DNA of 64,000 nt from Psammoneis japonica. Taxonomy: Eukaryota. Where the stretch lies: positions 67,719 to 131,718 of the forward strand of contig QPGO01000040.1 in NCBI GenBank assembly GCA_008632985.1. Direction: 5' to 3'. The notes below the pieces were generated by a model. That model did not search any database, was not told the DNA's origin, and was given only the letters and a program-made list of their open reading frames with translations. A program made the position numbers and the translations under genes. How positions within the stretch are numbered: position 1 is the stretch's first letter; every line of letters starts with the position of its first letter. Below, in pieces: positions 3,011 to 52,206 of this stretch.

Positions 3011-4040
3011 CGTGAACCTCCAAAGATTTGTGTGAGGAATGCGTGATCCCGCATCCGAAAGTTAAAGTTATGCGAGTTCACATTTGAAGTTGCGTGGAAA
3101 CTGTACTATGAGCTACGGACCAGCTCAGGCGCCCTTCCTCGAACGTCGAACTCCACTCCCGGCTTAGGAGGTCTGTAGCAGTTGGTCGAACTCACAACGA
3201 GATCCGGTTTCAGCAGAGTTTAGCACTGCGTTCTCTCCTCTCTGCTCTCTAGAGAGAGCAGACAACAGGGCCTCACTAGCCAGCAGCCTCTCTCTAGCTA
3301 GCTAGCAGATCTGACGCTAATGCGATGATGCTGTCAAACAACAAAACAAACTTGTGCTTGTGTCAATTTCATCATGTTGGTTTTCTTCGTTTGACCCAAC
3401 AAATGTTGGCACATCAAACACCACAGTCACACACACAAAAGCTCAAAACAAGTCAAATGGATTTCCCTTTCAGGAGGGGGGTGATGCATCAAATGGATTT
3501 CTTCCTTGTGGTGGTCCAGCTGGCTGCTGTGATTGTTGAGCTGGAGCAGAGGTGCCACATTTGCGGCTGCTGGGGAGCGAGCCAGCAGTTGCGGCTGCTT
3601 CTGTGGAGCTGGAGCGTTGCCGTCATTTGCTGCTGCTGTGGAGTGGGAGCCAGCACCGCCATTTGCTGCTGCTGTGGAGTGGGAGCTGGTGGTGCCATTT
3701 GCTGCTGTGGTGCAGGAGCTGGTGCCACCATTGGCGGCTGTGTTGTCAGAGGTGGATCCTGCACCAATCCCTTGGGTCGAGTTGTTGCTCCTCTCCTCCT
3801 TGTTGCGGGGTTGGACTTGGAATCATGGGTTTGCCACCTGCAGCAGGGATTGGAATTCTCCCATCATGTCATTGCCACTGTGCCATGATGTTGTTGCTCA
3901 CGTGCTTGACTCAGCATGGATGGAGCCAAAGTCACCAACATCAGACCTTGAGGAGCAGCTGAAGCAGGTGCCAAAACTGGAGCTGTGGCACCAGCGCCTG
4001 AACAGGCATGGGAGCTGGTGCACACAGAGCAGCCAGCGCT
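3011..4040. repeat. Diverged direct duplicate of ~20371-21690 (CTAG-rich repeat plus the 3' end of the ArfGAP-EH gene)
   Basis: Shared anchors: cgtgaacctccaaagat (3011 and 20371), gcccttcctcgaacgt, ctagctagctag, ttttcttcgtttga, gtcaaatggatttcccttt and ttgttgcggggttggacttggaatcat. Confidence 0.9.
3443..4040 (-). pseudogene. Decayed fragment of the ArfGAP-EH gene 3' end (Pro/Gln-rich tail with NPF motifs)
   Basis: Collinear with 21188-21690 and retains the KGNPFD.F-stop end. It has frameshifts and CpG>TpG/CpA changes (gcgggtgccgaaactggagccgg > gcaggtgccaaaactggagctg). Confidence 0.85.
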
Positions 4041-4989
4041 GCCAAAACAAAACCCAAAATCTGTTTTCATTGACCACTCAGTGGTTGATGATTGCAGACT
4101 TTTTTGTGTCCAGCAGCCAGGCAGTCTGGCAGTCCAGCAGTTGTGGTGTTGGGCAGTCAGCCCAAATTTGAGAGTGTGCCCCTCTGACTTTGGAACAGCA
4201 TGTGTGATTTGGCACAAATGAGTTGTTTGGATTCACAAAATGACAATTGAGAACATTGGAGGTCATGGGGACATCCCAAAGAATCAACAAATTCCCTGCG
4301 ACGGGTGCACAGAACTGTCTTTCAGAAGAGCTTGAAAGTGCTGCAAAGTTGGGGTGGGTTGCCAGCGTGGCATGTTGAAAATTGTGTTGGGCTTGGCATG
4401 AAGAGAACTCATTGTGAATTGGCACACAAAACAGTCAAAATGGAAAAAAACTCATCGTGCAATCAGCGAGTCTGTGTGGTGCACCATTTTGGTGGTGAAC
4501 TGGACAAAAAAGAGTGTCAGCATGAGCTGTCAAATGTGATGGTCATCTGCATCACCGGCGTGGTGGCCATGCCAACCTGCCACTGCAGTGCCAGCCCCAG
4601 TGGCAGAGCCCTGTGTGCGCGCAGGCAGTGCAGCATGCAGTGGCACACACCCTCACCCACAAAGAGAAAGACAAGTGGTCAATGCTCCCTGCAGGCCTGG
4701 TTTAGGTGCTGCTGTGCTTCCACCCCACAACTCTGGCAAACAAGCCAATCCACACCCTCAGCACACTCAAAGCGCAGCAGGGGCTCACAGCAATCAGCCT
4801 GAGCTGGCATCACCATCATGTGATGCTGCACCAAAGCCTCACAAAGCCATTTTGCCAATGCTTGATTTAAACACGGGTCTCGTCATTGCCAACAACTCCA
4901 AAGCCTGTGCAGAGAGTGATTCAGATGCTTGTCAACAGAGTCAAAAAGTTCTGCTTGATCTTTTGCCAAACAATGTTCACTGGACCATG

Positions 4990-5350
4990 AGTGGATCACC
5001 TCAACCTCTGCTTCCATGCACTGTGCTTTAATGACGAGTGTGCAAACAAAGACAGAATGAAGTGAGAAAAGTGAAAATTGCAAGATGAGATTTTTGTCAA
5101 TCATTTTGGGTTTCCCTGAATGAGTTCTCAATGGCCTAAAGCTTCTGCGCTCTGTGCATGAAAGGCCTTTCAGAAAATGTGGTCATGACAACAGATTGTC
5201 CGGGTGCAATTGCCATTGATGCATGAGGTGTCAACATTGTTGAGTGATTGCATTTGCAACTTTTGCATCCAACCAACTCTGTGTGATTGATTTGTCCTTT
5301 GTGTGAACCCATGATTGATGTGCAATTGAAGTGCAATGATGTTTGGGACA
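4990..5350 (-). mobile_element. Fragment homologous to the 5' leader/LTR region of the Gypsy element (related to ~11810-12180)
   Basis: Shares gtgaaaattgcaa, ttttgggtttccctgaa, aaagcttctgc and tgat.tgtcctttgtg..aaccca..attgatgtg with 11858-12155. Confidence 0.65.
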
Positions 5351-5689
5351 TGTGGACATGGGCTGCATGCATGATGCACACCATGGGGCAATGCATGTTG
5401 CACTCACCTCCCCAGTTGCACATTGGAGTCATTCATCAAATGGCACCATGCAGCAAATGTTGATGGCATCAACAACATCATCACATTTGATCTGCGCTGT
5501 GCCATTGGTGTGCGCCATTGTCATTGTGTGTGCTCCAGCATGAGGCTGTTCCATCTTTTGGGAGTCTTTCTTGAGCAGTGTCTTTTCTCCTGCTCTGCAT
5601 TGTGTGTGTGTGTGGAGTGCATCAAGTGTTCTCTCAAATGTGGTTTTCATTTGTGATTTCTTGTTTTTGTTCCTGGGCTGACTTTTTGT

Positions 5690-7990
5690 CTGTTGCCGCT
5701 TGCATCTGAAGGCTTTGTCAGTTTGGACGTTGCTCTTTTGGATGGGATGACTCTCGATGGATCCAAAGTAAAAGGGGACCCTTCCCTGCGCAGCAGCACA
5801 AGCACTCTCAACAACATTGAACAACACAAACCGTGTCAGCGAGCCTGGACCGTGTGGAGAAAATTCTGTTCAAGTCTGTGTCATCTGAGATCACACCGAC
5901 TAAAGGAACCTCTCGGTGATTGGCGGTTTCCACCATCACAAATGAGAATGCAATCTACCGCATGCTTCTCTCCATCTGAAGACAGCTTGTGTGCATGTGC
6001 TTTGGAAGGTCATGACATCTTCCAAGCAAATGGAGCAATCACTGACTCGACAGTGGAAATTGAGACAGTGCCAACCCCCTCCAAAGATTCCTGTCCGGCA
6101 GAAGTGTCCACAGTCAAGGATGGCCGATGGCAATTCGAGATTCCGCATGCTTCATCAACCGCCTCTCTTTCTCCGGCTGCACCAGACTCTTTTCTCGAGA
6201 GTCTTCAACGATTGGATGTTTGGGAACCAACGCTGTTCAAAGAATTGGCACTGCACGTTTCTTCTTGAGCATTGGCTCAACATTTTCTTTTGTCTGCTCT
6301 CACCGCAGGCAGTGACCGGTCAGTGCAGGAGGGAGCTGCCTTTGGATGGACAATCACCACAGACGGCACTCCATTGGTGGATTGCGCAGGACCAGTTTTT
6401 GGAAAGACACCATCTTTGTGCCGAGCAGAGGCCTGTGGCATCCTCTCAATTGCAAGGTTCATTTTTCGACTGTGTGAATGCTGTCGGATTGCAGCTCCTT
6501 TGGATGCGGTGATTCATTGTGACAACAAGGCATTGGTCAACTGTCTCTCCCAGTTGACATCTGCCTCACCTGTGTTTGACCCAGACAATGACTCTCACGC
6601 TTTGCACAATTTTCACATTCGTCGTCAAGGCGCCAACGCCATTGCCCCAGACTGGGACGTGCTGAATGAAATCCTTCACACCCAGCAAACTCTGACTCAG
6701 CTTTTGGATTCAGAGGACCTCATTCCCCCCCAGTGCTCTGGGTGAAAGGACATCAAGACAGGCATTCTCCGGTTCATGCCTTGCCTTTAAATGCTCGAGT
6801 CAACATCCGTGCTGACAGATTGGCAGGCACATGTCAAGGTCACTGTCTGCATGATGTGGAACAAGTGAAACGTCCACCTCATTGCCACTCTCACCTTGAG
6901 ATAGAGGGAGGTGCTGTGACGTCAAGCTGCAAGAAACAGATCAGATGCGCAGCCACTGCTCCTCAACTGATCGAATGCATTGTCGAACGCAACCAATGGA
7001 ACTCTTCAGTGGCAGATCAAGTGGATTGGAACGCCCACGTGGTCCTGGTGAAGCGCTGCTCAAAGAAACACGTCAACACGGTCAAATTGGTGTGTGGCTT
7101 GTCACCTGCAAATAAAATTGCCCACAGATGCAATCCAGGTTGTCCTCACCAGTGCATTGCATGTGATCATCCAATGGAAGACAGGGACCACATTCTCTGA
7201 TGTCCCAACAATGAACAGTGGAGGAGGAAGTTCTTGCAAGGCCTGCAAAGACACTGCGACAAGGTGGGCACAATGCCTGTTCTTTGTGACTTTCTGTTGG
7301 ACATGCCACAGGCTTGGTTCAATGAGGAAATCACGCATCTCGACAATGTGGATTGCAGATGCAAGGAGTTGTGGAAAGCTCAGTCTGATGTTGGATGGTG
7401 GATGGTGACAGATCTTCAATGGCAGACATTCATTCACGTGGAACCTCCTGCAATCCGGTCATCTTTGCAACTCAGGCATCTTGCGTCAACATCAAGAGGA
7501 AAACAAACAACCACCGGGTTGGACTGTCCAGACAGGATCCCACACATGGAGAAGCTGGTGGGAGCTGTGGGAGGAGCATGACCAGCCAGTCCACAGACAC
7601 GATGTGGAGTCTCAAAAGTCATCACAACGAAGAAAGGTTGAGGCCAAATTGACGGCAATTTACAACAAACATCACAAATGCTTGGCTGAAGACAGAGGTG
7701 TGTTGTTAGATTCAGTCAAGGAACACCGTTCATTCACTGTGACGAGGATTCAAAATTGGATCTCTGTGGTCCGCCCAAGACTCAAAGAAAGCCTGAAAGA
7801 AGCCAAACGCCTGGCTAAAAGAGGCGCTCGCACCATCTTCAGCTGTTTCTGTCGGGCGCCCTCATCCGGGGGCACCGTTTCTGGCCAATTGCACAAAATT
7901 TCTGCTGCATCCTCCGCAGGGTGCACTGGAAGTGTGGGTCAGCCGGCGCCGGTGTTGCTGGGCAAAGGTGCAACAGCACTCAAAATTGGA
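5690..7990 (+). mobile_element. Degenerate non-LTR retrotransposon (diatom RNase H-containing LINE), 3' portion
   Basis: RNase H motifs GSDRSV..GAAFGW, CRAEACGILS (consensus YRAEAYG), IHCDNKALV and WVKGHQD..LPLNARVNIRADRLA; a zinc knuckle CIACDHPMEDRDHIL*C; C-terminal IQNW..AKRGARTI. Contains stops and frameshifts. Confidence 0.8.
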
Positions 7991-10168
7991 GTTTTTTTTT
8001 TGAAGACCAGTTGTCCTGGTGCAGCTTGCACAGCAGCATGACACATTGAACATGCAGCAAAGGCCGCTGCTGACAGCACACCAGAGAGAGGATTGCCTGC
8101 ATCCAGGGGTGCATTTTGTGGGTTGAATGTGCGCAGCACATTGCCTGGTGTTTGGTGCAAGCATTCAACAACTGTGCTCACTTGTGGAGTTGATGCAGCT
8201 GTGGTCATGCCACAGTCATCTTGAGCCACATCTCTCAATTGGTGTCCAATGAACTCACTTCCATGGTCACATGTGATTCATGATGGCCAAGGACATCCAC
8301 TCAACCATGTTTGTTTCAACAGCCCAGCTGCAGTTTTGTGGGTTCCTCATTTAGAATTTTTGCAACTTCAAACCACCCTGCTGGGTCAATCATTGTTGAA
8401 CATTTGAAGACACGGGGTTTCTTCTTTCCCTTGCACAATGCATTTTGTTTGGTCCAGCAGGATCCACACAAAGTTGCTCTCCCCGCGGCACTGATTCTGC
8501 GCACTTGGGGGGCAAATGTCCACCATTTTTTGTGTTTTTTTTTTGAATTTCTGGCACGTCTCACATTTTGACACGCATTTTTGCATGTCTTCACGCAGGG
8601 TGGATCACCACAGGTGTTGTGAGATTGTTTTTTCTTCTGTTCTGTTTGTGCCTGGGTGAAGAAGATGTGCATGGCACCAGCCCATCACCGCTTTCTGCAA
8701 CATCTTTGGAATGATGATTTCATCCTTGTGACATGTGAAATGTCTCATTTGACAAATTGGAGAGAATGTCTTTGTCCCATTTCTGTTCAATGTCAAGAGC
8801 TTTGCAGTTCAATGGAAAGACATTGTCGCGGGATGTTGGCAGGACCTTTTTGACTGGTTGCTCAGTTCTGAGATGTTCCACAGGTTTCATTTTTTCATGG
8901 CAAGGCAAATTGTTTTGGGGCTGCTTTCTTCTGTTGTTGGATGCAGCACATGACACTGTCCATTGTAAAATTTTTGTGTGTGTGAGAGATCGTTGTGATC
9001 CAAGTGTGTGTTTGTCTGTTGGCCAAACAGCATGTTCTGCAACTCTTTTGGTGTTTCCATGACAGACAGCAGCTCTTTTTCTGCTGCAGCTGTGGAAAAA
9101 AACAGGTTGGTTTTGCTGTGCAACAACCACCCCCAATTGAGAATTGCTTGCATCAGCACACATCTCAAAGGGTGTGTTGAAACTTGGGTGTGACAATGGT
9201 GTGTCTTTTGAAATGATGGGCTCCACATTTTTCAAGGCTTTTTGTTCCATTTTGGCCCGTTGCCACTTCACCTGTGTTGGGATGAGTTTGGCCAAAGGAG
9301 CCAGAATGTGAGATTGTCAAGGCCGCATGTCTTGACAACAGTTGATCACACCAACAAGGCACCACAATTCCTTTTGCCAGTTTTTGGAGTGGTGATCACA
9401 TGAATTGCTTCAACTTTTTTTGGAATTGGGGTGATGCCATTGTGGGTGATGTGAAAGCCCAGACAGCCTGCTTTGAGTTTCTTCTTGGCATTGACCTTCA
9501 GCCCAGTTTGTTCAAGGTGCATGAAACCATTTCAAGCTTTTTGAGGTGGTCTCAGAAATCACCTTTGTGAGGCACAGTGTGTCATCAGTGTGAGTTCTGA
9601 CAAACTCCAGACACCTGCCATGAGTTCACTCATGTGCTCTTGGAAAACATCTGGAGCTCCACAGATGCCCCCTGGCAGTCTGCAGTGCTCATGTTTGCCC
9701 AAGAAAGTGCACAAGCAATGTGCACGCTGCATCAGTTTGACATGACAGTGTCCCATGTTCAAATCAAGGGAGGCAGCAAACACGGAACCTTCAAGTTTCT
9801 GTCACATGTCCTGAACGTCAGGCAAAGGAATTGGAGTGCACATTGACCTCTTGTTCAGCTCACGAAAGTCAGAAAGAAACCAAACTTGACCATTTTTCTT
9901 TGGTTGAATGAAGGTCACAGTGCCCATTCAGAACAATTTGTTTTTCTTGAGACCTTCAACTTGCACAGTCTTTCAGCTTCCTTTCAAGTGGCCGGTCACC
10001 TCCAAGGCTTGTGGCATGGGGAATGGTTTGGCGCAATGTGGACTCATGCCTGGTTTCAACTTTAAATCCACTGGCATCCTGGTCCACTTGCCCAGAGAAC
10101 CATTGAAAAGGTTTTCAAATCATTTTGAGAGGAAGTTCAGCTGCTTCTGCTCTTCTGGGTTTAGATGA

Positions 10169-10206
<38 letters not shown>

Positions 10207-12200
10207 CACATTGTTGAGGTTGGCACAACATGACAAGCCAACCTGAGTCAAGGAGCCAATTGACAACCCTGTCATTGAATCCAATCACAGCATGAGATTC
10301 CTCAAAGTGGTTGGCAATCAACTTGAAAACATCGGCATTGAAGAGTGCACCAACATTCTTCACAGGCACAGTTGCGTCCTCTCATTTAATTTCTTTGTTT
10401 GAAAAGTCCAATGTGGTCCTGAGACTTGACATCAAGTCACATCCCATGATCACATCATGACAACTCAAAGAAGAAGGGGTGTTGTCAACATGTCCCCTTG
10501 TTTTGATCATCTCATGTTTGTCAAATTCCAGCAAGGAGAACCAAATTTTACACCGATTCTTTGGTTCTGGGTCATCACGTCAATTTGCACAAAATTGTGG
10601 TTGACAATGTTCTGCTGTCAAGGAGAACATGAAGAGGCTTGTTTGAGCCACTGGACTTGCATGAATTGTTCTGGCCCTTTTTCTAGGCTTCCCAACATCC
10701 AGCAGAGTCACTGAGCATCAGTTTTTTAAATTGACAGTTCTCCTTGCTGAGGGTGTCAGAGTTGCAATCCTTTCTCTTCTTGTGCTTTGCATCTTTGTTT
10801 GAAGAACTTGCCTTGGGTGTTTTTTGATCCACCTGGATAATTGCAGCATTCAACTCTTCCTTGCGAGTGGCGTTTTCATTGTTGCAACATGACCACATGC
10901 TGTTGCCATTTGAATGGCACCACTTCAGATCATGACCACCATTTCTGTGGCACTCTTTGGCCAGCCTTTTTGAAACCCAGCACTTGCCCGCATTGTGGGT
11001 GGTCTTTTCGCAATGGCTGCACCACTTGTCAGACTCAGAAGCTTTGGCACCAGATTGGTGACCATTTTTGGAACCATGGTGCTTGCTTGGATCCATTCTT
11101 GGCTTTCAATCCAGGCTTGTTGCTGGCATCAGCTTGGACATGAGCAGAGTTGCGCGTGTCTTCTGCAACCTGCTTTGGATGCCCCCAAAACTCAGCCAAC
11201 TCATTCAAGGTGTGCTTCAAAATTTTGGGCCCTTTCTTGGTCAGCTGACACTGCCATTTGCAAGGTGCAAGGTTGCAGACAACATTCTTGAGATCATCAC
11301 CCTTGACCTTCTGATCTTCCTTGAAAGGAGGACAACACTTGAGGTCTTTGTTGACTTCTTGAACCCAGGTGGCAATTTCTTGGATCTTCATGGTCTCTGG
11401 CTTCTTGAGATCATGCCACAAATGGCATTTCTGAATTTGGACTGCATTCTTTGGAAAGACATGACTTGTGCAAGGTGTTGCAGGCATTTTTTGAAAGCTC
11501 CTTTGGCTGGCTCATCTTCAAGATGCAGCGCCATTCTCAACTTCTTGTTTCTTGATGTTTTGACCCACTGGGAGTTGTTTGCAGCTTGTCAGGAATTTGA
11601 GGCACTTCAAAATGCCTTGTTGCTTGCAGTGCTTGACATTGATTGTGCAGGTGTGGCTGTCCTTCTTTTCTGGGTGAAAGCACTGCTCCTGGCTTGGTTT
11701 GAGTTTCTTTGGTTTGGAGGTTGATTCCAACAGCGCTGGAGCTGTTTTCTCTTGAGGTGAAAGCTTTGTTTCTGTCTTGGCACCTTCTGTGGTGTGCATG
11801 CACAATGCACCATGCTCAAAGAACAAGCACAGACAAAGGCAGATTGAAGTGCAAAAAGTGAAAATTGCAACATTGGATTTCAGTCAATTGTTTTGGGTTT
11901 CCCTGAACAAGCTCTCAATGGTCCAAAGCTTCTGCACCTGCTCAAGCAAAAATTGATGCACTTCAATCATGGGCGAGTTTGTGCATTTGCAAAATTGTCT
12001 CATTTTCCATTGGTGGTCATTGGCACATTCATCACCTGGTGATTTTGCTGTGGAGATTGCATGTGGAATTCTGCGGGCCCAATGTCACACGGATTCCCAC
12101 CTGCATCTGAAATGCATCTTGATCTGTCCTTTGTGCAAACCCACAATTGATGTGTGGTTGAAGCACAACAACACATTCATGACACATGCAGACACACACA
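7990..12200 (-). mobile_element. Degenerate Ty3/Gypsy LTR retrotransposon (gag, protease, RT, RNase H, integrase)
   Basis: RT: AASLDLNMGHCHVKL and GKHEHCRLP..APDVFQEHMSELM. RNase H: FEMCADASNSQLGVV. Integrase: WCHAHLLHPGTNRTEEKTI, CETCQK, TMIDPAGWFE, ECLHQTPGNVLRTF and APGQLVF. Gag: LKKPETMKI..CCPPF and CSHCEKTTHNAGKCW. Domain order RT-RH-IN. Confidence 0.9.
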
Positions 12201-12349
12201 CACACACACACACACAGTGCACATGACAGTGCATGTTGCATCCACATGATGGCATTGAATTGATTCACCAGTTTCTGAGTCATGCCCACAAATGGTGTGA
12301 TTGTGTTGTTGATCCCACAATTTCTGCAATCAAGGCCAAACAGAGCTGC

Positions 12350-14530
12350 CAATCACAGCGGCCCAATCCACTCTGGAGTTGTCAGAGCCAGAGCTTTGAA
12401 CCATCTTTAAATGCTCTGGCTGCACCTTGCTCCAAAGGGAGGAGAAGCAATGGTTGAAAAGGTGCCACACCATCTAATCTGCTCTTGAGAGTGGAAAACC
12501 AGCACCAGTGCACTGTGGTGAAGCTTGTTGGCAGCATGAACCAGTTCCTCATGGAGCCAAGATTCTGGTGCTGCCAACAGCACAAGTTGCGCAAAGGAGG
12601 AGACATGTTGCAAGCCTTGAAGGAATGTGTGTCACCAAACTTCATTGCAAGAAGGACACCACAGAATGTGATTCCTGTCTTCCATCAGATGTTGACAATG
12701 GATGCAGCAGCTGGGTCAGATGGGGTTGCACTGGTCAACTGTCTTGATGGCAGACAGAAAATCTTGAGCCAACTTGGCTGCATTGACTTTCCTGCAAATG
12801 TTGCAAGACATGAGTTTTGAATGGACAGGCCAGTCAATGGAGTGGAGCACCTTGTCAGCCCATCCACATTTCTCTTTCATGTGCTGGATGTGGGTTGGAC
12901 TTGATGCCTTGAAGTGTGACAACAGCAGAACAATGTGGCACCCTGGGAGCAACTGAAGTGCTGCCAGGAAAATTCCTTTGATGTTGACCTGCAATTGACC
13001 CACACAGACACTCATCTTTGCCAGAAGAGACAATGACTCACAAGGGGCTCAATCATCTTGGTGTCCTTTGATCTGCTGCACACTGACTTGAGTGTTGAGT
13101 GCATGGCGGCTCTGCGAACGGGGATTTGGACAGGCACACAACTGAAAATTTTCCAGTCAGCCAACATCATGTCAGCAACATGATGTCTGTGGCAGCAGTC
13201 AAGAAAAGACAAGCTCCAGAAGAGCTTGCTTCATCTGAGATGGGAAATGGTGCCTGCAGATTTGCAATGTCTCAGATGATGGCAGAATTGCTGCAGTGTG
13301 GGTCCAAACCCAGCCAGAGGAAAAACAGTCTGACAACATTCCACAACCAAGAGCGTGGGTTGAACAAAGAAGAGTGTGCCTCATGCTTCTGTGTGGTGCA
13401 AAGAACGGTGAAACCCAAATGCAGGACCGGTGCAATTGACTGAAATCAAGTGATTGATGGCAAGCATCTGTCCAAATTCAGCATCAAAGTCAATGACCGA
13501 ACCATCGCTTGCCACTGCAGCTCAAGAGAACTTGCTGTCAGAGCAGAGTGAGCCAGCATGTGTGCCACCAACATGGGTGTGGGTCCACTGCTGCCCCTGG
13601 CAATGATTTTTCTGTCCACAGGGCTGCGTTTGATCTTGGCAACAAACTCACATGGCATGGACCAAAAATGGAAACAGCCACACACGTGTGTGCTGTCAAA
13701 CAACAAGTCCAGAATTCCAGAGGTTTTGGTTTTGAGCAGAGTCATGCAGAAAATGTCCTGTGACCACACAACAATGCTTGTGAAAGCTCATTGGCAAGCT
13801 GGGGCTCTGCTCATTTGCGTTGTGCACCAGACCACAGCACTCATGTCCTGGCATTTCTGACATGCTGTTGCTGGCACATTTTGCCACTGGGTGAGCAACA
13901 ATGTGTCATTGCTTCAAAGCCACGGGAAGGCTGTTTTGAGGGTTGCCAAACTCTCTTTGTGTTTTTCTCATCATTGAGTTCACAGCCCACACAAAAATGG
14001 TGCCAAACAAGGAATCAATGTCATGACCCTGCTTTGAACAGATTAAATCCAAGTGGCTGCAAGTTGTTGGAGATCTTCAAAGCACCCCTTCAGTGCATTC
14101 CTTGGATGGGTGCTGACTGTGCAGCAAACTGGGTTGCTCACTCATCCTCTTTGATGCTGCTCTTTTGTCCACACCACATTCCTCATGCTCTGCAGGTGGT
14201 TCCAGACCTTGCCAGTCATCCAAACACGTGTTTTGTCATTGACATCTTTGCAAAAGTGTGCCCTCCTTCTCTTGCTCTCATGGCTGCACTGCTGTCAACT
14301 GGCCTTTTGTGCAAACCTCATCTCTGTCAGGCAAATGTTGTGTGGCAGCAAAGACATGTTCCAGCTCCAGGTGGGACCTCACACTGCTGAACTGTGACAT
14401 CAACAGTTTTTGGATGGTGCCACATGTCACGCATGCAGATGGCTGCATGTGACATTCTAAGAAAATGTTTCATGTTCCCTGTTTTGTGAAGCCCCAAAGG
14501 CTTTCTGTTTTCAATTTTTGACATTTGCGA
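12350..14530 (-). mobile_element. Second degenerate RNase H-containing LINE relic (same type as 5690-7990)
   Basis: Minus strand gives AVASDGSV (~13490-13520), CTGPAFG and MLADWKIF. GWADKVLHSIDWPVHSKLM..KVNAAKLAQDFL matches QWNSSVADQVDWNAHVVLV..HVNTVKLVCGL of the first LINE. Confidence 0.7.
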
Positions 14531-15638
14531 GAATTAAAACACCCTCTGGGGGGGGAGGGGCACATTCTTCAATGTTTGCAGAACACACCCAGGCAAACTG
14601 TCAATGATGCACTTCAAGTGTGAAGGAGGAGATGCGTTCATGAAATTGGCTCTATTTCTGTTGGCGATCATTTGTTTGCTGCACTTTCATTGCTTGGCGA
14701 AGTTGCTGCGGAGCTTGCACATGGAATCCCACGGGCCAAATGCCACATGGAGTCCCACCTGCTGGGACTGGAACCTGTCCAATGGCAATCTTTTGTGCTG
14801 CATGGTCATTGCAAAAAAACACGTAGAAACTGTGCAGACCAGTGCCGCCAAAAAAATGCAATTTGTTTGTCTGTCCGCCCTTGGTGAATTTTAATTCTGC
14901 AAAAAATGGACTTGACTGCCAACTGATCAGGTGCATTTCTGCAAAAGTTTTGAGAAGACAACCATTTTGGTGCAAAAACATGCAGCAGATTTTGTGGACG
15001 TCCTTGAGCAATTTGTGGGTTTTGTGTCACGGGTCATTTTCGAAAGATTGTTGTTGAGACGAGAGAGGACGGCTCTGCAAATTTTGTGCACAAGGGGATG
15101 CAGCCATGGCTCTGCTGCAAAAAGCCTGTGCACAGCTCTGCAAGCAAATGGGGTGCATGTTGGGCTGGTTTGTGTCCATGGCAAGAACTTGAGAAATGCC
15201 AGCTGCCTTGGCTGCACTCAGCCCAAGCTCACATGTGTCCCCCCATGAAAAGCTCCGAGTGCAGCTCTTCCCATCACACTGGCTGGATGTCTGCTCCAGA
15301 TCAACACCTCAGACAGAATGCAAGCAAAGAGGATTTGCTGATGAGCAGTGATGGGAGTTCAGCCAATGGTCTTTGCCAAACCGCTGTTGACCAAATCACA
15401 AGCTGCCCAGAGGACTGAGTCTGCTGAGTGCAACAAAGCGAGATTTTCCCGCACACTTACACTGGAGACTGGTGCAAGTTTTAGGGAAACAAGCACTGCT
15501 GAAGCAATCGAGCTTGAAATTCGGGGGACGTGGCGCAAAAGAATTTCAATCAGAATTCCGATGGACAGAATGACAGACACACACATGGAAGATTGGGTCA
15601 GTGGACAGACGACCCACGACTCACTCTACTACGTCCCG

Positions 15639-15975
15639 TATGAAAGGGGACGTAGCCGGTGGCTCTGCTACCAGAAGCTCTCATGTAGCTATCAAGGCAA
15701 AGGGGACGCATGTAAATCTGCATCGCAGGGGTGGCAAGAATTCGAGAAACGTTGGTAACCTTACACTCTATGGAAAGGGGACGTAGCCAGTGGCTCTACT
15801 ATCAGAAACTCGCATGTAGCTATCAAGGCAAAGGGGACGTACGTAAACCTGTATCGCAGGGGTGGCAAGAGTTCGAGAAACGCTCATACACTCTACCGGT
15901 ATGGAAGGGGACGTAGCCAGTGGCTCTACTACCAGAAGCTCGCATGTATCCCAGTAGGCAAGGGGACGCATGTGA
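15639..15975. repeat. Tandem repeat, ~130 bp period, about 2.5 copies
   Basis: aaggggacgtagcc.gtggctct.cta.cagaa recurs at ~15644, ~15775 and ~15905. Confidence 0.9.
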
Positions 15976-19162: not shown

Positions 19163-20071
19163 CTATTGTATATTTGTCAGCGCCCTCCCTTTTTTGTATA
19201 TCGAGAACATATCTCTAATGCACTCTTCTTTTCGTTTTGGTCTGCATGCAATGTCCATACTACTACTACTACTTGATGGGTGCTGCAAAAATGGAAATGA
19301 TTGTAACCTTCTCTGTCTCACCGTAATGTCGTCACCGAGGAATGAGGAAAGATCGTCTTCGAGATTGGGCAAAGTGAGATCGTCCTCATTCGTCTCTAGT
19401 GCTTGTGTCTCTTGTGTGGGCATACTCCGGGCGTAGTGTTGACCGGCATCATCATAGTTGAAAGCATGATCATCTCTTTGCATGGAAGGCGTTTTTCCAA
19501 AAGCATATCTCGTGTCTCGTTCTCGTTGTTCCGTGGCGTAGGAAAATGGGGTTCCTGCTGGAGACGAGTCGGAGGGCGCCGACGTTTCCTCCATGCGGAC
19601 CTCCCAGTCTGACTTCGCAGACTTGTTGTTGGAATACACCATGAATTCCAAAGGATGTTGCAAATGGATGCCGTGATGAGAAGATATCTTGAAGGTGTTG
19701 TCCCTGCGAAAGCCGTACTTGCTGAGATTGTTTTGAAAGGACTTAAATTGTGTCTCGTTAAAGAAGATGCCCATCACATGCTTCTTATATCCTTCACGCT
19801 CAACAGCAAACTTCTTACCATCGTCCAGCCAAAACATGTATGAAGAGAGCGGTTCGCATGATAGCAGTTTGTAAAGCTTCGCAGGGAACAAGAGGGTTTT
19901 GTGATCGTGGCCGAAAACTTGACGTCTCAATCTTTCAGCCAACTGCCGACGAGCCGTGGCACCCAGAACTTGTTGGCCCGCCGATGTGGCTAAAAGACTT
20001 AGTGAAAGGCGTATGTCAATTTCATCAGGGTAGTCAGTTTCCATCATCGTATCGTTGCCTATCGTGCTCAT
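19163..20071 (-). CDS. Heat-shock factor (HSF-type DNA-binding domain) protein
   Basis: FPAKLYKLL..MFWLDDGKKFAV..FFNETQFKSFQNNLSKYGFRR matches the HSF DNA-binding domain consensus. Confidence 0.85.
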   Translation of the reverse strand: MSTIGNDTMMETDYPDEIDIRLSLSLLATSAGQQVLGATARRQLAERLRRQVFGHDHKTLLFPAKLYKLLSCEPLSSYMFWLDDGKKFAVEREGYKKHVMGIFFNETQFKSFQNNLSKYGFRRDNTFKISSHHGIHLQHPLEFMVYSNNKSAKSDWEVRMEETSAPSDSSPAGTPFSYATEQRERDTRYAFGKTPSMQRDDHAFNYDDAGQHYARSMPTQETQALETNEDDLTLPNLEDDLSSFLGDDITVRQRRLQSFPFLQHPSSSSSSMDIACRPKRKEECIRDMFSIYKKGRALTNIQ

Positions 20072-20469
20072 GCAAATGGTGATCGCAGGTGAGAGATAAG
20101 ATAAGATCCGCCCAGATGTACTTAGAGTCAGAATGTTGCATGCGCTGTGCGCTATCTGCCATTCTCTGTTCTTTTCGAATTTTTAGTTAAAGGCGCCGAC
20201 GTCACAAAATGGCATTTCGTTTTTTAAGGATTCTTCAACTAGCAGGACGATGGAAACCTGGACATTTCACATAACGAAGAGTTCCGAATGCTTGTTTAAA
20301 CTCCCCTTGACTTATTTATCGAGAAACTAAATGTTTTCATACGTTCTTTTAAGATATGTACCGAATCTAGCGTGAACCTCCAAAGATCTCCATGCGTGAT
20401 TCGAGAGAGTTGAAGTTGCGAGTTCACTTTTGAAGTTGCGTAGGGCCCTACGGTAGTAGCAATTGTACG

Positions 20470-21187: not shown

Positions 21188-24100
21188 TCAAAACATGTCA
21201 AATGGATTTCCCTTTGGCGACAGGGGCGCCGCATCAAAAGGATTTCCTCCTTGTGGTCCGGACGGCTGTTGCGGTTGAGCTGGAGCAGGCGCCATTTGCG
21301 GTTGTTGGGGAGCCAATTGCTGCTGCTGTTGGGGAGCCGGTGCCATTTGCGGTTGGGGAGCAGGAGCCGACGCCATTTGCGGCTGCGTTACCAGAGGCGG
21401 AGCCGGTGCTAATCCCATGGGTTGAACGGTTGCTCCTCCTCCTTGTTGCGGGGTTGGACTTGGAATCATAGACATGCCGCCACCCGCAGCGGGACTCGGA
21501 ATTCCCATCATGTTGTTGTTGCCATTGTTGTTGTTCATGCTCGACGGGGCGGGACTTGCGGGTGCCGTTTGACTCGGCATGGTCGGAGCCGGAGCCGCCG
21601 ACAGAGCCGGAGTCACAGGAGCGGGTGCCGAAACTGGAGCCGGTGGTACAGGCGCTGGTGGAGCAACCGGTTCTGGAGGAGCAGGTGCAGCCACGGGTTC
21701 CGGAGCTGGAGAAGGAGCAGATGGTACAGGAGAGGGAGCAACCGGTACTGGAGAGGGAGCCGACACGGGCGCGGGTCCACTGTTGCCATTCGCAACGACT
21801 TTTCCATCCACAGGATTGTGTTTAATCTTGACAATAAACTCATGTACTTGTTTCAATTGCGCATCCGACAAGTACAGTATTTCCTCCTTGATTTGTTTTT
21901 GTACTTGAGATTCTTGCAATTCCTGTAAATGCGCATCGTCCGTTTGCTTTTCTTTCCCCGTGGGCAAGACAATGGTATAAAAGGGTTCCAAATCATCATC
22001 GTAATGGACCTTGACAATTTTGGCAACACAGACATTCTTGGAACTGTCTGTATACGTGACGGCTTGGCCCTTTGTATATTTGGACGATGCACCCTTGGCC
22101 GAGGACGATGCCGATGTCGTTGTCGTGGCTGCTGCTGCTGCTGCCGGCGTACTACTACTCGTCGCTGGCTGTTCGACAAGTGGCGTAGACGCCAAAGCCA
22201 AATGATTAAAGGCATCAAAGGCATTCTTGCGAGGACTTGGTGGTGGAGCCGGGTCGGTAGCAGTAGGAGGCGGCTGCTGCTGCTGCTCTTGCGCCGGTTG
22301 GGGTGGCTGCGGAGGCGGCGGCTGCTGCTGTAGGTCCGGTTGAGCTTGGGATGACTGCTGCTGCTGTAGTGAGGGCGGTTGAACTTGTTGCTGTACCTGG
22401 GGCTGTACTTGGGGCGGTTGCTGTTGCTGCTGTACCTGAGGAGGCTGCTGTTTAACAGGCTGCATTGGAGCAACTTGATTCGGAGCCGTTCCTCCTCCTC
22501 CCATGCCTTGTTGTTGCATGTTGTTATTTCCAAAGCTTTGCTGTGGTTGCAAAGCAGCTGGTGGTCCCCCGCTTGCTTTGAATGCCACCAACGACGCTGG
22601 TAGTTGCGGCGGCAATTGCAATTGTTTTTGTCCAACACAATGAATCAAGTGTAATGCCAAACAAAATTCCATCTTGTCAAGTTGATTATCCACGGGTTTA
22701 TCCACCATGGTCCAAATATCTCTCAAGATGGTTTGATCCAATCCGTATTGTCCAAATAATTGTACCGCCTGTGGACCCAAGACGTATTCTGTATTGGGTG
22801 GGAATTTGGATTCGTACATGCTGTACTCTTGTGGCGTCATGCTGTACGGATCGGACGGTTGTTGCTGTTGCGGAGTAGGCTGTTGTTGCTGCTGTGGAGC
22901 CGGTGGCGGTTGAGCGGTAAATCCCTGCTGCGGTTGCTGCTGCGAAGTAGGTTGCTGTTGACCACCAAAGTTGGCAAAGCCGCCTTGTTGCTGAGGCTGC
23001 TGTTGTACAGGTTGCGTCGGCTGCGCCTGAGGCTGCTGCTGCTGTCCACCAAAGTTGGCAAAGCCGCCTTGTTGCTGCTGAGCTTGGGGCGGTGGCTGTA
23101 CTTGAGCCGGCGGCTGTTGAGGCGGCTGCTGCTGACCGCCAAAATTGGCAAAGCCTTGTTGTTGTGGCTGCTGTGGTACAGGCTGCTGCTGCTGCTGGAC
23201 GGGTTGTGGCTGTTGAACAGGCGGTTGCTGCTGCTGCTGCTGCTGCTGTCCACCAAAATTAGCAAAGCCTTGTTGTTGCGGAGGCTGCTGCTGTTGCGGC
23301 GGAGCTTGCTGAGGCTGTGTCTGTCCGGCTCCACCACCAAAGTTTGCAAAGCCTTGCTGCTGTTGAGCAGGCTGAACTGCTGCTTGTTGCCCTCCAAAGT
23401 TTGCAAAGCCTTGTTGTTGCTGCTGCTGCTGCTGTTGAGGTGGAGGCTGCTGCTGTACAGGCTGAGCTCCAAAGTTTGCAAATCCCTGTTGCTGTTGCTG
23501 TTGCTGTTGAACAGGCTGTTGCTGAGGCGGAGCTGGAGCCGGAGCAGGAAAGGCCGCGTGAAAGGAATTATTCTGCTGTTGATGATTCGCCGATTGGGAC
23601 GATCCGCCAAAGTTATCCCAACCACCGTTATTATTGGTAGTACTAGCAGCATTACTGGCTGGAGCAGGCGCAGGAGACGCATCAAATCCGAGCAAATCAA
23701 CTGCCGGAGCTGCTTTTTCCTTTTTGGGAGGCACCTTGACTCGCGTCGGCTGTGGCTCACTCGTAGCAGACGTACTATTAGCATCACCACTATACCACGC
23801 CTTGTCATGATATTTCCTTCGAATCCATATACGTAGAGCTTGTAAATCAAAATTATTTTCCGGAGCTCGTAGTCGTTCTCGCATGGGATCATATCGTGCC
23901 AGATACACAGCATTGACTTTATCGTTGCTGGTATTCTTCATCAACATGACTTCGTCCATACTAAACGTTGACGCACCCATACCCTTGACGCGATGATTGA
24001 GTTCTCGCAAGACGCCACTGCATGCCATGCAAACATACGTCCCGACCGTCAAATTGACGCACTGCGGAAGTTTAGTGCTGCAATCGGCACACTTTTTGTT

Positions 24101-24205
24101 GCACGGTAAACGTGATTGAGCACGAAGAATTTCTTCTGGTGATTCCGGGGTCTTGCGACGGCGGGGTTTGTTGGAAGAAGAACTAGTGCCTGGACGGGGA
24201 AGCAT
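21188..24205 (-). CDS. ArfGAP (AGFG-like) protein with GFANFG repeats, an EH domain, an SH3/Tudor-like module and C-terminal NPF motifs (~1005 aa)
   Basis: ArfGAP zinc finger [18 protein letters not shown]-like [59 protein letters not shown] and KGNPFDMF. First plausible ATG (MLPRPG) is at 24205. Confidence 0.9.
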
Positions 24206-24479
24206 GATGTGGTGTTGGTGGTAGATACTGTGGTAGTAACGAGAGTGATGTAAACAAACAACAACAAACGACGTGTTGATAATTGTTGTTGTTGTTGCTC
24301 TCAACGCTCGCACCACCACACGTGACCTCTTCTTGAAAAATGACCGCGATCTTTCCAATGCGGGCGGACGGAAGGAAGGACGGACGGGTCAATGCGACCT
24401 GAATCGTTTATTCGTGAATGAATACATAATGCAATTGCTTACTTAGTGTAACCTGTACATCGGCCAATGACGCGTTGTT

Positions 24480-25750
24480 GTGTTTTTTGTGAGCGCATCA
24501 TGTGTGGTCCTCCAGCTCATGTTTTGTGGTGCTTTTTGCCAAAACCATCCCAACATGCCCACATTGAGAGATGTGCCACGACATTGCTGGCAAAAACTTC
24601 CAGCAATGACGACCCATTCTTGTGTGACCAGCACATTGCTGCCTCGTCGGTTCTTGTTGCTGACAAAGTTGTTTCTCATTTGGGTGCTCTCACAACTTCT
24701 GAGTTGCTCATCAGCTCACGGTCCACAAAAAAATCACCAACTTTGTCTCCTTGCTTTTGCTGCTGCCACGAGTGTTGTGTTGCCCTCAACATGAGGGCCG
24801 GCCTGCTTTTTGCCTTGTGTGCTTGTTGCTTGTTGATGCGGCAAAGCTCTGCTGTGTGCTGGTGCACCTCATGAGCTGAGGCAGCAACAGCAACCAACAG
24901 CAGCATTGGACAACAAACTCCCATTGTTTGGGGGATTAAAGTCACCATCATGATGCAGCAAATGTGGTGCCAGTCATTCTGGTCTTTTGAGCTGCTCTTC
25001 AAAATCTCTTGACAAAAACCAACAGTTTGGTGTGATGCACCTCAGCAGTCGCTCACCCAGAAGAGCTTCACAGCCCTTGACTTTGGTGTGAATGGGAAAA
25101 GGAGGAGGCACACCAGCAGCTGCAAAAAAGCTGCAAAAAAATGACAGAAATGCACAAACCATTTTTCGGTGTGTTTGAGATTTTTTGACGCCAGTCAACA
25201 CAACAGACCTGGTCCAGTGAATGATGGGATGATGTGCATGACTGAACTGATGAAGATTCTCATCTGCCAAACTTTTGCGTTGCTCTCATTTTCCTTTGTG
25301 CCCTTCCTCCACTCAAGACTGTTTTGCTGCAAAAGCTGCATCAAACTCTCGCTTTTGCTGTGCTCAAAGTTAGCATCATGGCACAGCGGTTGCCAGCACC
25401 TCCAGTCATGAGCCACACTCCCAAAACTCTCAAGTGCCTGAAGTTTGGCCTGGTGCACCTTGGCACCCCCCAACCACAACCACTCAAAGCCAGCGTTGAC
25501 CTCATGAATGTTTTGACCTGATTTCCACAGAAAAAAAAAAATAGCTGCAAGGAGAGAAAGCATGCAACAACAACAAAATGCCATTGGAAACGGGGGAAAT
25601 CACCAGCCATGTTTGTTCTGCCACAGCAGTGAACACAATGACATTGTTGCAGCTCTCTTGGTGTTGCACCTCTCTTGGTGGTGTTGCAGCGCCGATGTGA
25701 TGGTGGGTGCGGTTCGTGATGGCAAAAACATTCTCGAATTTTGCGCCAGC
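24480..25750. other. TpA/CpG-depleted hypermutated island 2 (unidentified repeat relic)
   Basis: Abrupt compositional switch like domain 1. The few surviving TpA are attaaa, gttagc and aatagc. No recognisable protein motif. Confidence 0.85.
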
Positions 25751-26050: not shown

Positions 26051-28377
26051 CTAAAAATTCTCCTTGTGAACGAGCAACCGACAAGTACATGCGACATCCT
26101 GTTTCTTTCTGGTAGCATACTGATGCTCGGCCTTGACACGCTGAGCAATGCGCTGGAGATTGGAAGCAATCGCTGGTGCACCACAAAAGAAGATACCAAC
26201 CGCCTTACCTTCGGCGTTTGTAGAATGCGCTCGTTCAATGGCATCCACGAGAATGCTCTCCCAGTCGGGACGTCCAGCATTAAGCGAATGATTCGAGCTG
26301 TAGCTTACAAAGGGATTCACTTGCTCAACATATTCTGGTTTGTCTCGAGTAGCATACAACTGAAGGGAATAGGCAGGAGACAAGTCTCGAACAGTTTCCA
26401 CCAGATCGGGTGCAGCGAAACTCATGCCTGAGTAATTGCGGGACACCCAAATGCCAGTGATTGAGTCAACCCTTGCAGATTGCTCATTTCGTTGAGTACA
26501 AGAGGATGCTTGGTCAATCTTGGGGGGACGAGCTGTCGCGTAGAAGATGAAAAAGATTCGAACGCCATGCAACAGCATAAAGAAGGCAAAGGAGATAAAA
26601 TATGCAATCGCCTCATTGCGACTTGGTGAATGAGCTGACGAAATAGACGTGCCAAGCGCCACGCCATCCACCAACACAATACCAAACTCCAAAAGGCCAA
26701 CAAATGCTACCAAGTACCGGCGACCATATGCCATCGTGGATAGCACAATCTTGGAACCAAACAAGACAAGAGCAATGCTGCTTGCAACAACTTCCATCAA
26801 TGCGCTTGTCCGGTTGTGGTCATAGAGCCACACGCCAAACACTGCAACCTCCATATACATGAAGAAGAGAAACATTATAATGTTCACGGTCATGGACTAG
26901 ATACTTGCATAGTAGGCAGCCTTGGCTTTGACGGAGGCAAACTGTCGACCAGCAAAGCTCACCACGTCCACGTGAGCCAAATCCGTACTTTCAACAAGAC
27001 GCTTCTCGTCGAGCTGAGCCGGTAACCGCTCAAGACTCTTTCCGCGCTTCCCGGAGCTTCCAACATACTGGGTCGCATCTGGGTTTGACACAAGCTTTGA
27101 TCCAGCCGAGACAAGGTGATTCCAAACCGAAAGCAGTGGGGTGACGCCGATACCGGATCCAATGGCAATAATGTGCCGATAAGCAACATAATTCTGAGCT
27201 GGAGCACCATACGGGCCTCTCAACCTGATAGACGACAGAACGGGGGCATCAGCCTGACTCGTGGCTTGTAATGCTGCCAGATCACAGAGGGCTTTCGTCC
27301 ACCGTCCAACTGCCTTGATGTAAAACACGACTTCTCCGTTTTCGTTTGGGGCACTGGCGATAGTGAAGGGATGCCATTCGTATCGTGACAACTGAGGAAT
27401 CTTCAATTCAGCATACTGTCCTGGTTCATATCGAAAGCTGCTGCACTGAACAATCATCTTGACAACGGTTTCGTCGCCATCCCGGTGGGTACTCAAATGA
27501 ATTACACCTGCATTCTTGGCGACAAAGACGGAACGTCGCATTAGACAGTCGAATCCATACACGAAAATTGGAAACGCCATGAAATACAACGTAATGGGTT
27601 CCCCTCGAATGGTTCCATGAATTAACAACAAGGGCAACGCCGAGATGATGCCAATGATATGAGTGATCCAAAAGATACGAAAGCCAATGGTAGTGTGGCG
27701 AACATATTCCAACGTCGTCACGTAAAACAGCCCAAACACGACAAACAGGATAATGCCAGTAATCAACAACTGTCGCGTCGCAAACCCATCGCCCCATGTC
27801 CAAATGGGACCACCGTCGTTGATTTTGATCTCCTCTGTGGCATAGTTTATAATCTGAGAGGCGGTTAGAAAGAGAAAAGAATGATTGGCAAGTTCAGAGA
27901 GTGCACAACATTGTCCTTGGTTTTCATTACCTGCGGGATCGAATGCACGATGCATCCCATGACTATGACTGTAGCAGCAATAATGCGATGATAATAGGGC
28001 ATGACTTTGTCCACAGGAAAGCCCAGCTGAATGGGCGTGAGTCGAACACGTGTCCAGAGGTACTTGCAGCCCGTAATGAGAATAAGCGCTGAGTTCCACG
28101 TCACCAGTCGTCCAGCAGCACGTGCAATCGGGAGGGTGATTCTCAACACATTACTGTCAGTCGTCCATTTAGGTTCGGTGAACTCCCAGGCGCCCCAGAC
28201 AGCCATACAGGCATTGACCGCCATGAGCATTCCCAACGCCGCGAGGTTTGCTCCATGATTGAAGAAGAACGCCTCCGAAGCTGCCCAGCGTCTTGCAGCA
28301 GAGTTCGACAATGTCGCATCGGTTGTAGAAGATTCATTCATGTTGTCTGCCTCTCCAAAGACGATGGCATCGTGCAT
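26051..28377 (-). CDS. NADPH oxidase / ferric reductase-like (RBOH-type) gene with extra TM helices in the NADPH domain; intron 27854-27930; in-frame TAG at 26897-26899 (possible pseudogene)
   Basis: Motifs PIARAAGRLVTWN, haem-ligand His (YYHR, HSIPQ, WITH, LIHG), PGQY, EWHPFTIASAP, RGPYGAP, GSGIGVTP, GRPDW, GIFFCGAP and terminal HKENF. The 5' end may extend further upstream. Confidence 0.85.
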
Positions 28378-38000: not shown

Positions 38001-39241
38001 ATGCATTTGACATGGCTGCATTTACTCACGGTGGTGTGTCCATTGCGAACAAAGCACACCAACGGAAATTCACAATCGCTGTCGCTATCGCAGTCCCCTT
38101 CGCACAAGCCAAGAATTGAATTGGCTGGGTTGGCTACATTAATCAACTCATTCACTTGGTCGCCTTGAGCTGAAGTTGGATGAGGAGTGGGGTTGGAAGA
38201 AGGTGAAGGAGTTGGTGATGGCGTAGCGTCTTCATCCGGACTTATGCAGTAGTCCCAATCGATGATACCATTGGCACTCCCACAGCCAGGCACCTGTTTG
38301 GATTCATAATTACAAATAATACCGGTTAGAGATAGCAGCATCATGCATTTGAAATGGCTACATTTACTCACGGTGGTGTGTCCATTGCGAACAAAGCACA
38401 CCAGTGGACCTGCACAGTCGCTGTCACTGTCGCAGTCCCCTTCGCACAAGCCTAGAATAGAATTGGCGGGGTTGGCTACATTAATCAACTCATTCACTTG
38501 GTCGCCTCGAGCTGACGTTGGAGAAGGAGTGGGGTTGGTAGTAGGAATACGGGTCGGGTTTTGCGTTGGGTTCGGCGTCGACAAAGGGGTGGGATTCGGA
38601 GTCGCTGGAATGTCATCACCCCAAACACCAAACTCTTGCAAAGAGAATCCGTTCTGAGTGTTGGGAGTTATTCCATACATTCGAATATACTTTCCTTGCA
38701 CATCTGATGGGAGATCAATAATTTCCGTGCCGCCTTGACCATTGCTCTCTGAAAACACAGTTTGCCATTGGTTCTTGTCGTCAGACACGTCGATGGTGTA
38801 TTCTTTGGCGGATGCAGAATCCCAAACAAGTGCAACTTTGGTAAGCTTGTACGCCTTGGCAAATTCCAGATAAATATACTCGTCGTCGCTGTGTTCGCTT
38901 GCCCACCGAGTGCTAAAGTCGTGATCAAATGCCTTTTTAGGTGCGTATTGTTCATCTGCGTGATAGACGGAAGACGTTCCTGTATGAATAAGCTGCAACG
39001 TTGTTGACAGTCTCCTTCGAAGTGAAAGTAGATCCTCTTCGATAATACGGTCAGTCGGTATTTCTTCGACAGGTCCTTCGATCTTTACTTCTTTTTCTTC
39101 GTGAAGAACATGCTCAACGAGATTTTCGTCCATTCTTATTAGGTTCTTGAACGGCGAGTTGAGTCGATGTTGTCGTCTTGCAACAGTCCCGGTGGCGCTT
39201 AGCGCAGCCAACAGAACTGCTGCGTTCCTGTGGAACCTCAT
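32008..39241 (-). CDS. Very large multi-exon frustulin-like cell-wall protein: signal peptide, F5/8C (discoidin/CBM32-like) domain, ~17 acidic Cys-rich (CxGDCD) domains, Pro/Thr/Ser linkers, C-terminal Trp-rich domain
   Basis: MRFHRNAAVLLAALSATG; KAFDHDFSTRWASE..YIYLEF..GKYIRMYG..SLQEFGVWG; repeated C[EQ]GDCD.D.DC...C..R.G...VPGC..DYC; PETSSPT repeats; LKLYWEQGYGWQD..WC. GT-AG introns fall at matching positions within the repeats. Confidence 0.85.
34250..35950. repeat. Intragenic tandem repeat, 621-bp period, about 3 copies including an intron
   Basis: Near-identical ORF starts at 34590, 35211 and 35832 (spacing 621), with near-identical intron sequences. Confidence 0.95.
36530..38540. repeat. 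Intragenic tandem repeat, 342-bp period, 6 copies, each an ACR exon plus a ~78-nt intron
   Basis: cggtggtgtgtccattgcgaacaaagc occurs at 36661, 37003, 37345, 37687, 38029 and 38371. Confidence 0.95.
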
Positions 39242-45104: not shown

Positions 45105-45109
45105 GGTGA

Positions 45110-52120: not shown

Positions 52121-52206
52121 CTCGATTGCTCTTCAAGAAAATATGGATGCATGATGCCGGCGACCGCCACCATGGAGCCAATCTCTCCCCGATGAATCCT
52201 TCAATC

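Follow-up and report, generated by a model that had tools for sequence, protein, structure and literature searches.

The conserved tyrosines of a dead Ty3/Gypsy long terminal repeat (LTR) retrotransposon in the diatom Psammoneis japonica have been replaced by histidine and cysteine, and this replacement is very probably the protein-level footprint of a domain-wide mutation process acting on TA dinucleotides in DNA after integration. The old copy occupies positions 5016–12271 on the minus strand of the 64,000-nucleotide stretch analysed here, referred to as the window (assembly GCA_008632985.1, contig QPGO01000040.1, positions 67,719 to 131,718), and all coordinates below are those of the window. 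The changes run from TA to CA or TG, depend on the dinucleotide and its flanking bases, are found on both strands, postdate the integration of the element and are restricted to islands of DNA. An earlier note on this stretch, made from the letters alone, had proposed systematic tyrosine recoding of Gypsy pol motifs; the recoding is supported by the comparisons reported here, and the earlier reading was right in its core.

Loss of conserved tyrosines from pol

A phmmer search with the reverse transcriptase (RT) of the window, with X at the stops, gave 12343 relatives, and 23 diverse long proteins were taken from the best 150. The best long phmmer match had 119 full-length relatives, and the first 40 of these made up the second comparison set. 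A profile was built from these 63 intact relatives (23 + 40), and three window frames were aligned to it. Columns were called conserved when the same residue was leading in both sets, at ≥50% and ≥70%, and 171 such columns aligned to the window. Tyrosine was kept in 0 of the 11 conserved tyrosine columns, which now hold Cys (five), His (four), Phe (one) and a Met at a frame junction where the column is not safely readable, whereas 117 of 160 other conserved columns kept their residue (Fisher p = 1.5e-6). With stricter and looser conservation thresholds the tyrosines kept were 0/5 and 0/13, respectively. By the same score the 23 diverse intact proteins kept 4–10 of 9–10 tyrosines, and five intact controls with an overall retention like that of the window (0.73–0.77) kept 6–10 of 9–10. 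Protein conservation thus polarises the change from TAY to CAY or TGY (Y, pyrimidine) as the earlier note had argued, nine of the 11 columns being His or Cys and none Tyr, and the excess of Tyr to His or Cys exchanges that it expected from an alignment to intact pol proteins is present.

The composition of the protein shows the same. The stitched pol translation of 706 residues contains no tyrosine, compared with 4.0% in the relatives on the same columns, and is richer in His (4.8% vs 2.8%) and Cys (4.5% vs 1.6%) and poorer in Arg (2.8% vs 6.2%). Ten host open reading frames (ORFs) of the window have 3.3% Tyr.

All five motifs on which the recoding had been read were found at their places on the minus strand, and six of the eight tyrosine positions assumed in them are borne out by the relatives. 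In LDLNMGHCH (9742–9768; DLNMGYYH in relatives) the two tyrosine columns, 385 and 386, have Tyr in 58/63 and 52/63 relatives and the codons CAC and TGT in the window. In GKHEHCRLP (9673–9699; GKYEYQRLP in relatives) columns 407 and 409 have Tyr in 59/63 and 52/63 relatives, and the window has CAT and CAC. In the integrase, the first tyrosine of WCHAHLLHPG (8650–8679) is present in 48 of the 53 relatives having a residue there and has become TGC, and that of CSMCH (8038–8052; RAT-Y-H in relatives) is present in 31/50 and has become TGT, flanked by R>C (TGT) and T>M (ATG). The two remaining positions did not hold. At the Cys of FEMCADAS (9146–9169, column 588) the relatives are ambiguous, with His in 34/63 and Tyr in 22/63, and the second assumed tyrosine of WYH.YL falls in a variable column (T/M/Q/I/V/E) in which Tyr is not the majority residue. 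The motif list had also overlooked the catalytic YIDD box, since it lies in a shifted frame: it now reads HTDD (9581–9592, column 440), with the codon CAC where 55/63 relatives have Tyr.

Among the 54 changed conserved columns, 15 are explained by single TpA-class steps and 10 by single CpG-class steps, compared with three in the mirrored ApT/GpC control contexts and five other transitions. On the coding strand the T>C outcomes (four His) are about as many as the A>G outcomes (five Cys). The expected arginine changes from CpG decay were found, with only two of ten Arg columns kept and replacements of W, W, C, C, Q, Q, H and K, so that seven of eight changes are to W, C, Q or H. The excess of I>T and V>A that had been predicted alongside did not appear: there was a single I>T, whose context does not fit, and no V>A was seen at the main threshold. 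The proposal that such recoding would inactivate the element without stop codons is logically correct, but the copy is in addition broken by nine in-frame stops, every one TGA, and by at least ten frame changes along the stitched pol path.

TA-erased islands and their flank rule

The element lies in a TA- and CG-erased island of 12.3 kb (3301–15600, edges accurate to about 200 bases) that reaches past both LTRs and retains only 34 TpA, an observed/expected ratio (o/e) of 0.04, with CpG o/e 0.26, CpA 1.88 and TpG 1.74. Three further TA-erased stretches are found in the window: an islet of 1.3 kb between the ArfGAP and ferric-reductase genes (24451–25750, TpA o/e 0.05), a stretch at 44901–52200 (TpA o/e 0.03) and one running to the window end (63401–63950, TpA o/e 0.12). 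In the four stretches CpA and TpG o/e are 1.5–1.9 and CpG o/e is 0.18–0.76. The genes and intergenic DNA between the islands have TpA o/e of about 0.5–0.8, and the CpG o/e of the genes is near 1. At the right-hand border of the 12.3-kb island lies a threefold tandem repeat (unit of about 131 bases, 83–86% identity, 15635–15965) in which TA and CG are retained.

The bases flanking the residual TA were counted in 18,602 island bases and 39,503 other bases of the window. RTAY (R, purine) was found 0 times in the islands vs 474 times in the rest, RTAR 6 vs 474, YTAY 10 vs 415 and YTAR 29 vs 296, giving per-base survival in the islands of 0.000, 0.027, 0.051 and 0.208, respectively. These counts bear out the RTA/TAY rule from which the recoding had been predicted.

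The erasure has also reshaped the distribution of stop codons. The three sense frames of 7993–11511 contain 105 TGA vs six TAA and one TAG, and because TA-erased DNA is nearly without TAA and TAG, long spurious ORFs arise in all frames: 87 stop-to-stop ORFs of ≥85 aa were found over the six frames of 3533–15245 and 45244–52069, none of which matches Pfam at E≤0.001.

Mechanism and alternative explanations

The proposed process would convert 5′-TA-3′ to CA or TG, that is, by A:T>G:C transitions on either strand, with RTAY the fastest sites, RTAR and YTAY intermediate and YTAR the slowest. As tyrosine codons are always TAY, every one of them is a preferred target, and A>G gives Cys while T>C gives His. 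T>C, and with it His, would be favoured after a purine, and the context for A>G would be favoured in every TAY codon. Ordinary CpG decay would have proceeded alongside in the same island, turning Arg into Cys, Trp, Gln or His. Because of the way the genetic code is built, neither T>C nor A>G turns a sense codon into a stop, and TAA and TAG are removed. Such a process consequently disables proteins by missense only, and the TGA stops of the copy come from CpG decay and other changes.

Several observations weigh against this account or limit it. No enzyme, modified base or ongoing mutation has been observed here, only a footprint, and with ten transversions and 11 changes of at least two steps among the 54 changed columns much ordinary decay has occurred as well. 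The split between His and Cys by the preceding base goes in the predicted direction in the nine clean tyrosine cases (3 His:1 Cys after purine, 1 His:4 Cys after pyrimidine) and is only a trend, the cases being too few for a test; the His at column 440 is preceded by T, contrary to the flank rule. That the process is aimed at transposons rests on the sole identifiable island element in the window. Dependence on repeats would be no more than a possibility, since parts of the island look single-copy: in one sequencing run 12548–14283 has a depth of about 67–110 vs 54–86 outside the island, so the erasure is not limited to DNA still repeated at ≥88% identity. Finally, the CA/TG doublets that separate the two LTRs, described below, are compatible with ancestral TA and ancestral CG alike. 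In the same sequencing run the Gypsy family is multi-copy and differs between copies mostly by transitions (126/169); among the 40 variant places with the best support, CpG is restored at 13 and four are TG>TA, two of these being halves of TG>CA doublets. No RNA run with the stretch was listed among the sequencing runs; the DNA run shares half of the words sampled from the window and may come from the source sample itself, and these between-copy variants are not independent support.

As to chemistry, the process may be a deamination of adenine at TA on either DNA strand, carried out by an enzyme directed against silenced or foreign DNA, with the resulting hypoxanthine copied as if it were G; we hold this tentatively, at a little short of an even chance. 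Bacterial TadA recognises U-A-C in the tRNA on which it acts, and this would fit the TAY preference. Less likely, and on the whole improbable, thymine rather than adenine was the target, with T at TpA in silenced DNA modified to a base of the 5-hydroxymethyl- or 5-formyluracil type that pairs with G and yields T>C. Since TA is self-complementary, a thymine target in RTA and an adenine target in TAY denote the same sites, and the footprints would be identical. The base 5-formyluracil forms mispairs with G, and in dinoflagellates hydroxymethyluracil is found at TpA; no modified thymine is known from diatoms. The only published account of this signature, a preprint on the chlorarachniophyte Bigelowiella natans, favours adenine deamination, itself as a hypothesis (Mettrop et al., bioRxiv 10.64898/2026.01.13.699255).

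Editing before integration, by an ADAR-like A>I activity on double-stranded RNA of the element followed by reverse transcription and insertion, would draw on the preference of ADARs for U before the edited A that is mentioned in the Discussion of the same preprint (bioRxiv 10.64898/2026.01.13.699255). It is rejected as sole cause, and its residual probability is very small, on the evidence for timing. The LTRs, identical at insertion, were compared by a transition-tolerant local alignment of the 5′ LTR (11805–12271, minus strand) and the 3′ LTR (5016–5439, minus strand), in which 403 aligned bases comprise 287 identities, 84 transitions and 32 transversions, with 85 gap columns. Adjacent CA↔TG doublets, 19 in all, account for 38 of the transitions, and both LTRs must then have resolved the same ancestral TA (or CG) independently after insertion. 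The coding strand has both T>C and A>G, as described above, and the erasure continues outside the LTRs for 1.7 kb and 3.3 kb; the three other islands, which lack this element, show the same depletion. Doublets, both kinds of change and erasure beyond the LTRs together place the action on chromosomal DNA after integration.

Ordinary neutral decay under the background mutation bias, with no special process, is about as improbable and is likewise rejected. The copy is old, its LTRs differing at 116/403 aligned bases with many indels. Against this stand the absence of RTAY from the islands, where about 223 are expected from its density in the rest of the window, the TpA o/e of 0.5–0.8 in neighbouring genes and intergenic DNA, and the spectrum of changes, with three in mirrored contexts vs 25 in the TpA and CpG classes. 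A Gypsy lineage natively avoiding TA and carrying His or Cys at these positions, which would have refuted recoding outright and for which the His of 34/63 intact relatives at column 588 might speak, is the least credible and is rejected, since the nearest intact relatives (39–42% identity) have Tyr at the conserved columns other than FEM-C and contradict it for nine of 11 columns, the catalytic YIDD is itself changed, the copy is dead, and the DNA of the best-scoring 80 of 544 metagenomic relatives, a choice favouring intact copies, has a normal median TpA o/e of 0.79 with 0/80 loci below 0.3.

Tyrosine-poor relatives among public proteins

Recoded relatives of the same appearance are present among public proteins. 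Six of the 150 phmmer representatives are without Tyr and a seventh contains just one; His and Cys are abundant in each of the seven, which have C or H at the conserved tyrosine columns and keep 71–84% of the other conserved residues. The tyrosine-free or tyrosine-poor Gypsy RT proteins are P0018, P0038, P0073, P0077, P0089, P0141, P0091, P0371, P0372 and P0391. Four of them (P0018, P0371, P0372 and P0391) form a second lineage in which H vs C differences occur at the same ancestral tyrosine column. In these four Arg is kept in 12/15, 7/11, 12/14 and 15/15 columns, and as Arg is thus largely kept, TpA has been erased without CpG decay and the two processes are separable.

Comparison with known systems

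The closest known system is that of Bigelowiella natans, in which mutation accumulation brought out new TpA>TpG/CpA mutations in integrated giant-virus and virophage DNA and in which TpA-poor genes are enriched in reverse transcriptase and DDE domains (Mettrop et al., bioRxiv 10.64898/2026.01.13.699255). Common to both are changes of A:T>G:C only, at TpA only and on both strands, clustered in regions of foreign origin where TpA is low and CpA+TpG high. The cluster rule given there asks for consecutive 1-kb windows in which TpA o/e is at most 0.43 and combined CpA+TpG o/e at least 1.52 (bioRxiv 10.64898/2026.01.13.699255). The 1-kb windows of 4001–15000 and 45001–52000 have TpA o/e 0.00–0.09, CpA 1.63–2.37 and TpG 1.48–2.08 and fall within this rule, with CpA and TpG scored separately and not combined. 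The differences are that the host here is a diatom and not a chlorarachniophyte, that erasure is almost total, with TpA o/e of 0.03–0.05 in the islands compared with 0.45 in the virus region of Bigelowiella, that the flanking bases grade the erasure here (RTAY > RTAR/YTAY > YTAR) while the abstract, Results and Discussion of the preprint report no flank preference, nor any diatom, and that CpG decay goes alongside. In Bigelowiella the mutations were watched arising in culture, whereas the islands here preserve only a fossil trace.

Repeat-induced point mutation (RIP) of Neurospora and other ascomycetes is similar in its dense transitions on both strands of repeated or foreign DNA, its dinucleotide specificity and its disabling of transposons. 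RIP changes C to T at CpA, which makes TpA, raises A+T and creates stop codons. Here TpA is destroyed, G+C is raised and no stop is created from a sense codon. The TpA excess by which RIP is recognised is absent, TpA being erased and CpA/TpG enriched, with T>C and A>G at the tyrosine columns. Decay of CpG through 5-methylcytosine deamination, as in methylated transposons, has acted in the same island (CpG o/e 0.26, Arg kept in 2/10 columns and otherwise mostly W, C, Q or H) and is incapable of Tyr>His/Cys. APOBEC and ADAR footprints in vertebrate LTR retrotransposons reportedly are clustered transitions of deaminase type fossilised in copies; unlike the changes described here, which are post-integration and on both strands, they originate on RNA or while it is being reverse-transcribed, with a bias towards one strand.

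No account of TpA erasure in diatoms was found in the full-text literature searched. Mutation accumulation in Phaeodactylum revealed a GC>AT bias, and TpA is never named in the excerpted passages of that study (PMC6604790). Some diatoms have DNMT4 enzymes akin to RID, the enzyme of RIP, with function unknown according to the excerpts (PMC9998398), and these are relevant at most to the CpG half of the footprint. A TpA-erasing process in a diatom is thus of a kind so far described in one preprint only.

Organisation of the element and neighbouring genes

The domains follow each other on the minus strand in the Gypsy order of protease, RT, RNase H and integrase. Two overlapping open frames at 10683–11511 (minus strand) are remnants of gag, one translation of which includes CSHCEKTTHNAGKC; a CX2CX4HX4C knuckle string is visible in one frame, although Pfam gave no match at E≤0.01. 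The gag pieces have, like pol, no Tyr in 141 and in 159 residues. The protease region remnant (10300–10717, minus strand) aligns to profile positions 93–213 with 38.5 bits, and its SCHDVIMGCD corresponds to the 'kydmIlGrd' stretch of relatives. A (GCT)n run at 10162–10213 gives a poly-Ser stretch between protease and RT. The RT (9373–10191, minus strand; hmmsearch 206 bits, profile positions 239–517) is disrupted by frame excursions and by six in-frame TGA stops among 256 codons. The RT-RNase H connection and RNase H, including FEMCADAS, are at 8970–9373 on the minus strand (Pfam RT_RNaseH_2 E = 4.7e-08; profile positions 516–661). The integrase, with H2C2 zinc domain and core, is at 7993–8845 on the minus strand with at least three frameshifts (hmmsearch 155.5 bits, profile positions 751–1012, plus shifted pieces), and its open piece has a weak match to Pfam Integrase_H2C2. 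The 2.5 kb between the integrase end and the 3′ LTR (5440–7992) are without recognisable domain, with no Pfam match at E≤0.001 among ORFs ≥85 aa, and may be a nested insertion or a degraded extra ORF. The 5′ LTR contains a (TG)n microsatellite at 12181–12225; this and the (GCT)n run were left out as repeats in the comparison with the contigs of the sequencing run.

Host genes with normal TpA are situated between the islands: an HSF-type DNA-binding protein gene (19163–20182), an ArfGAP/EH protein gene (21188–24388), a ferric reductase in two adjoining open frames (26051–28150) and an F5/8 type C domain protein gene (36599–39361). The best named matches of the ArfGAP/EH protein are to diatoms at ≤50% identity (among them Pseudo-nitzschia, Bacillariaceae, Mayamaea, Cylindrotheca, Skeletonema, Epithemia and Thalassiosira), which marks the host as a diatom and not Bigelowiella.

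Implications

Tyrosine codons provide a polariser of mutation that needs no outgroup, since the ancestral state is given by protein conservation and one dead copy is enough to reveal both the direction and the context of the change. Proteins of TA-erased DNA escape domain searches, and gene finders and transposon annotators are misled in such genomes. If the process is enzymatic and targeted, it would add, from a different major lineage, a second case of an A:T to G:C defence acting on foreign DNA. It is conceivable, though rather doubtful, that diatoms and chlorarachniophytes share an old defence in which a DNA adenine deaminase preferring T-A-Y acts on silenced chromatin domains and erases TpA by missense alone. 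Such a defence would be the mirror image of fungal RIP, killing transposons and integrated viruses with the loss of tyrosine foremost, and tyrosine-free, His- and Cys-rich RT fragments would then be a marker by which the system could be traced across eukaryotes.

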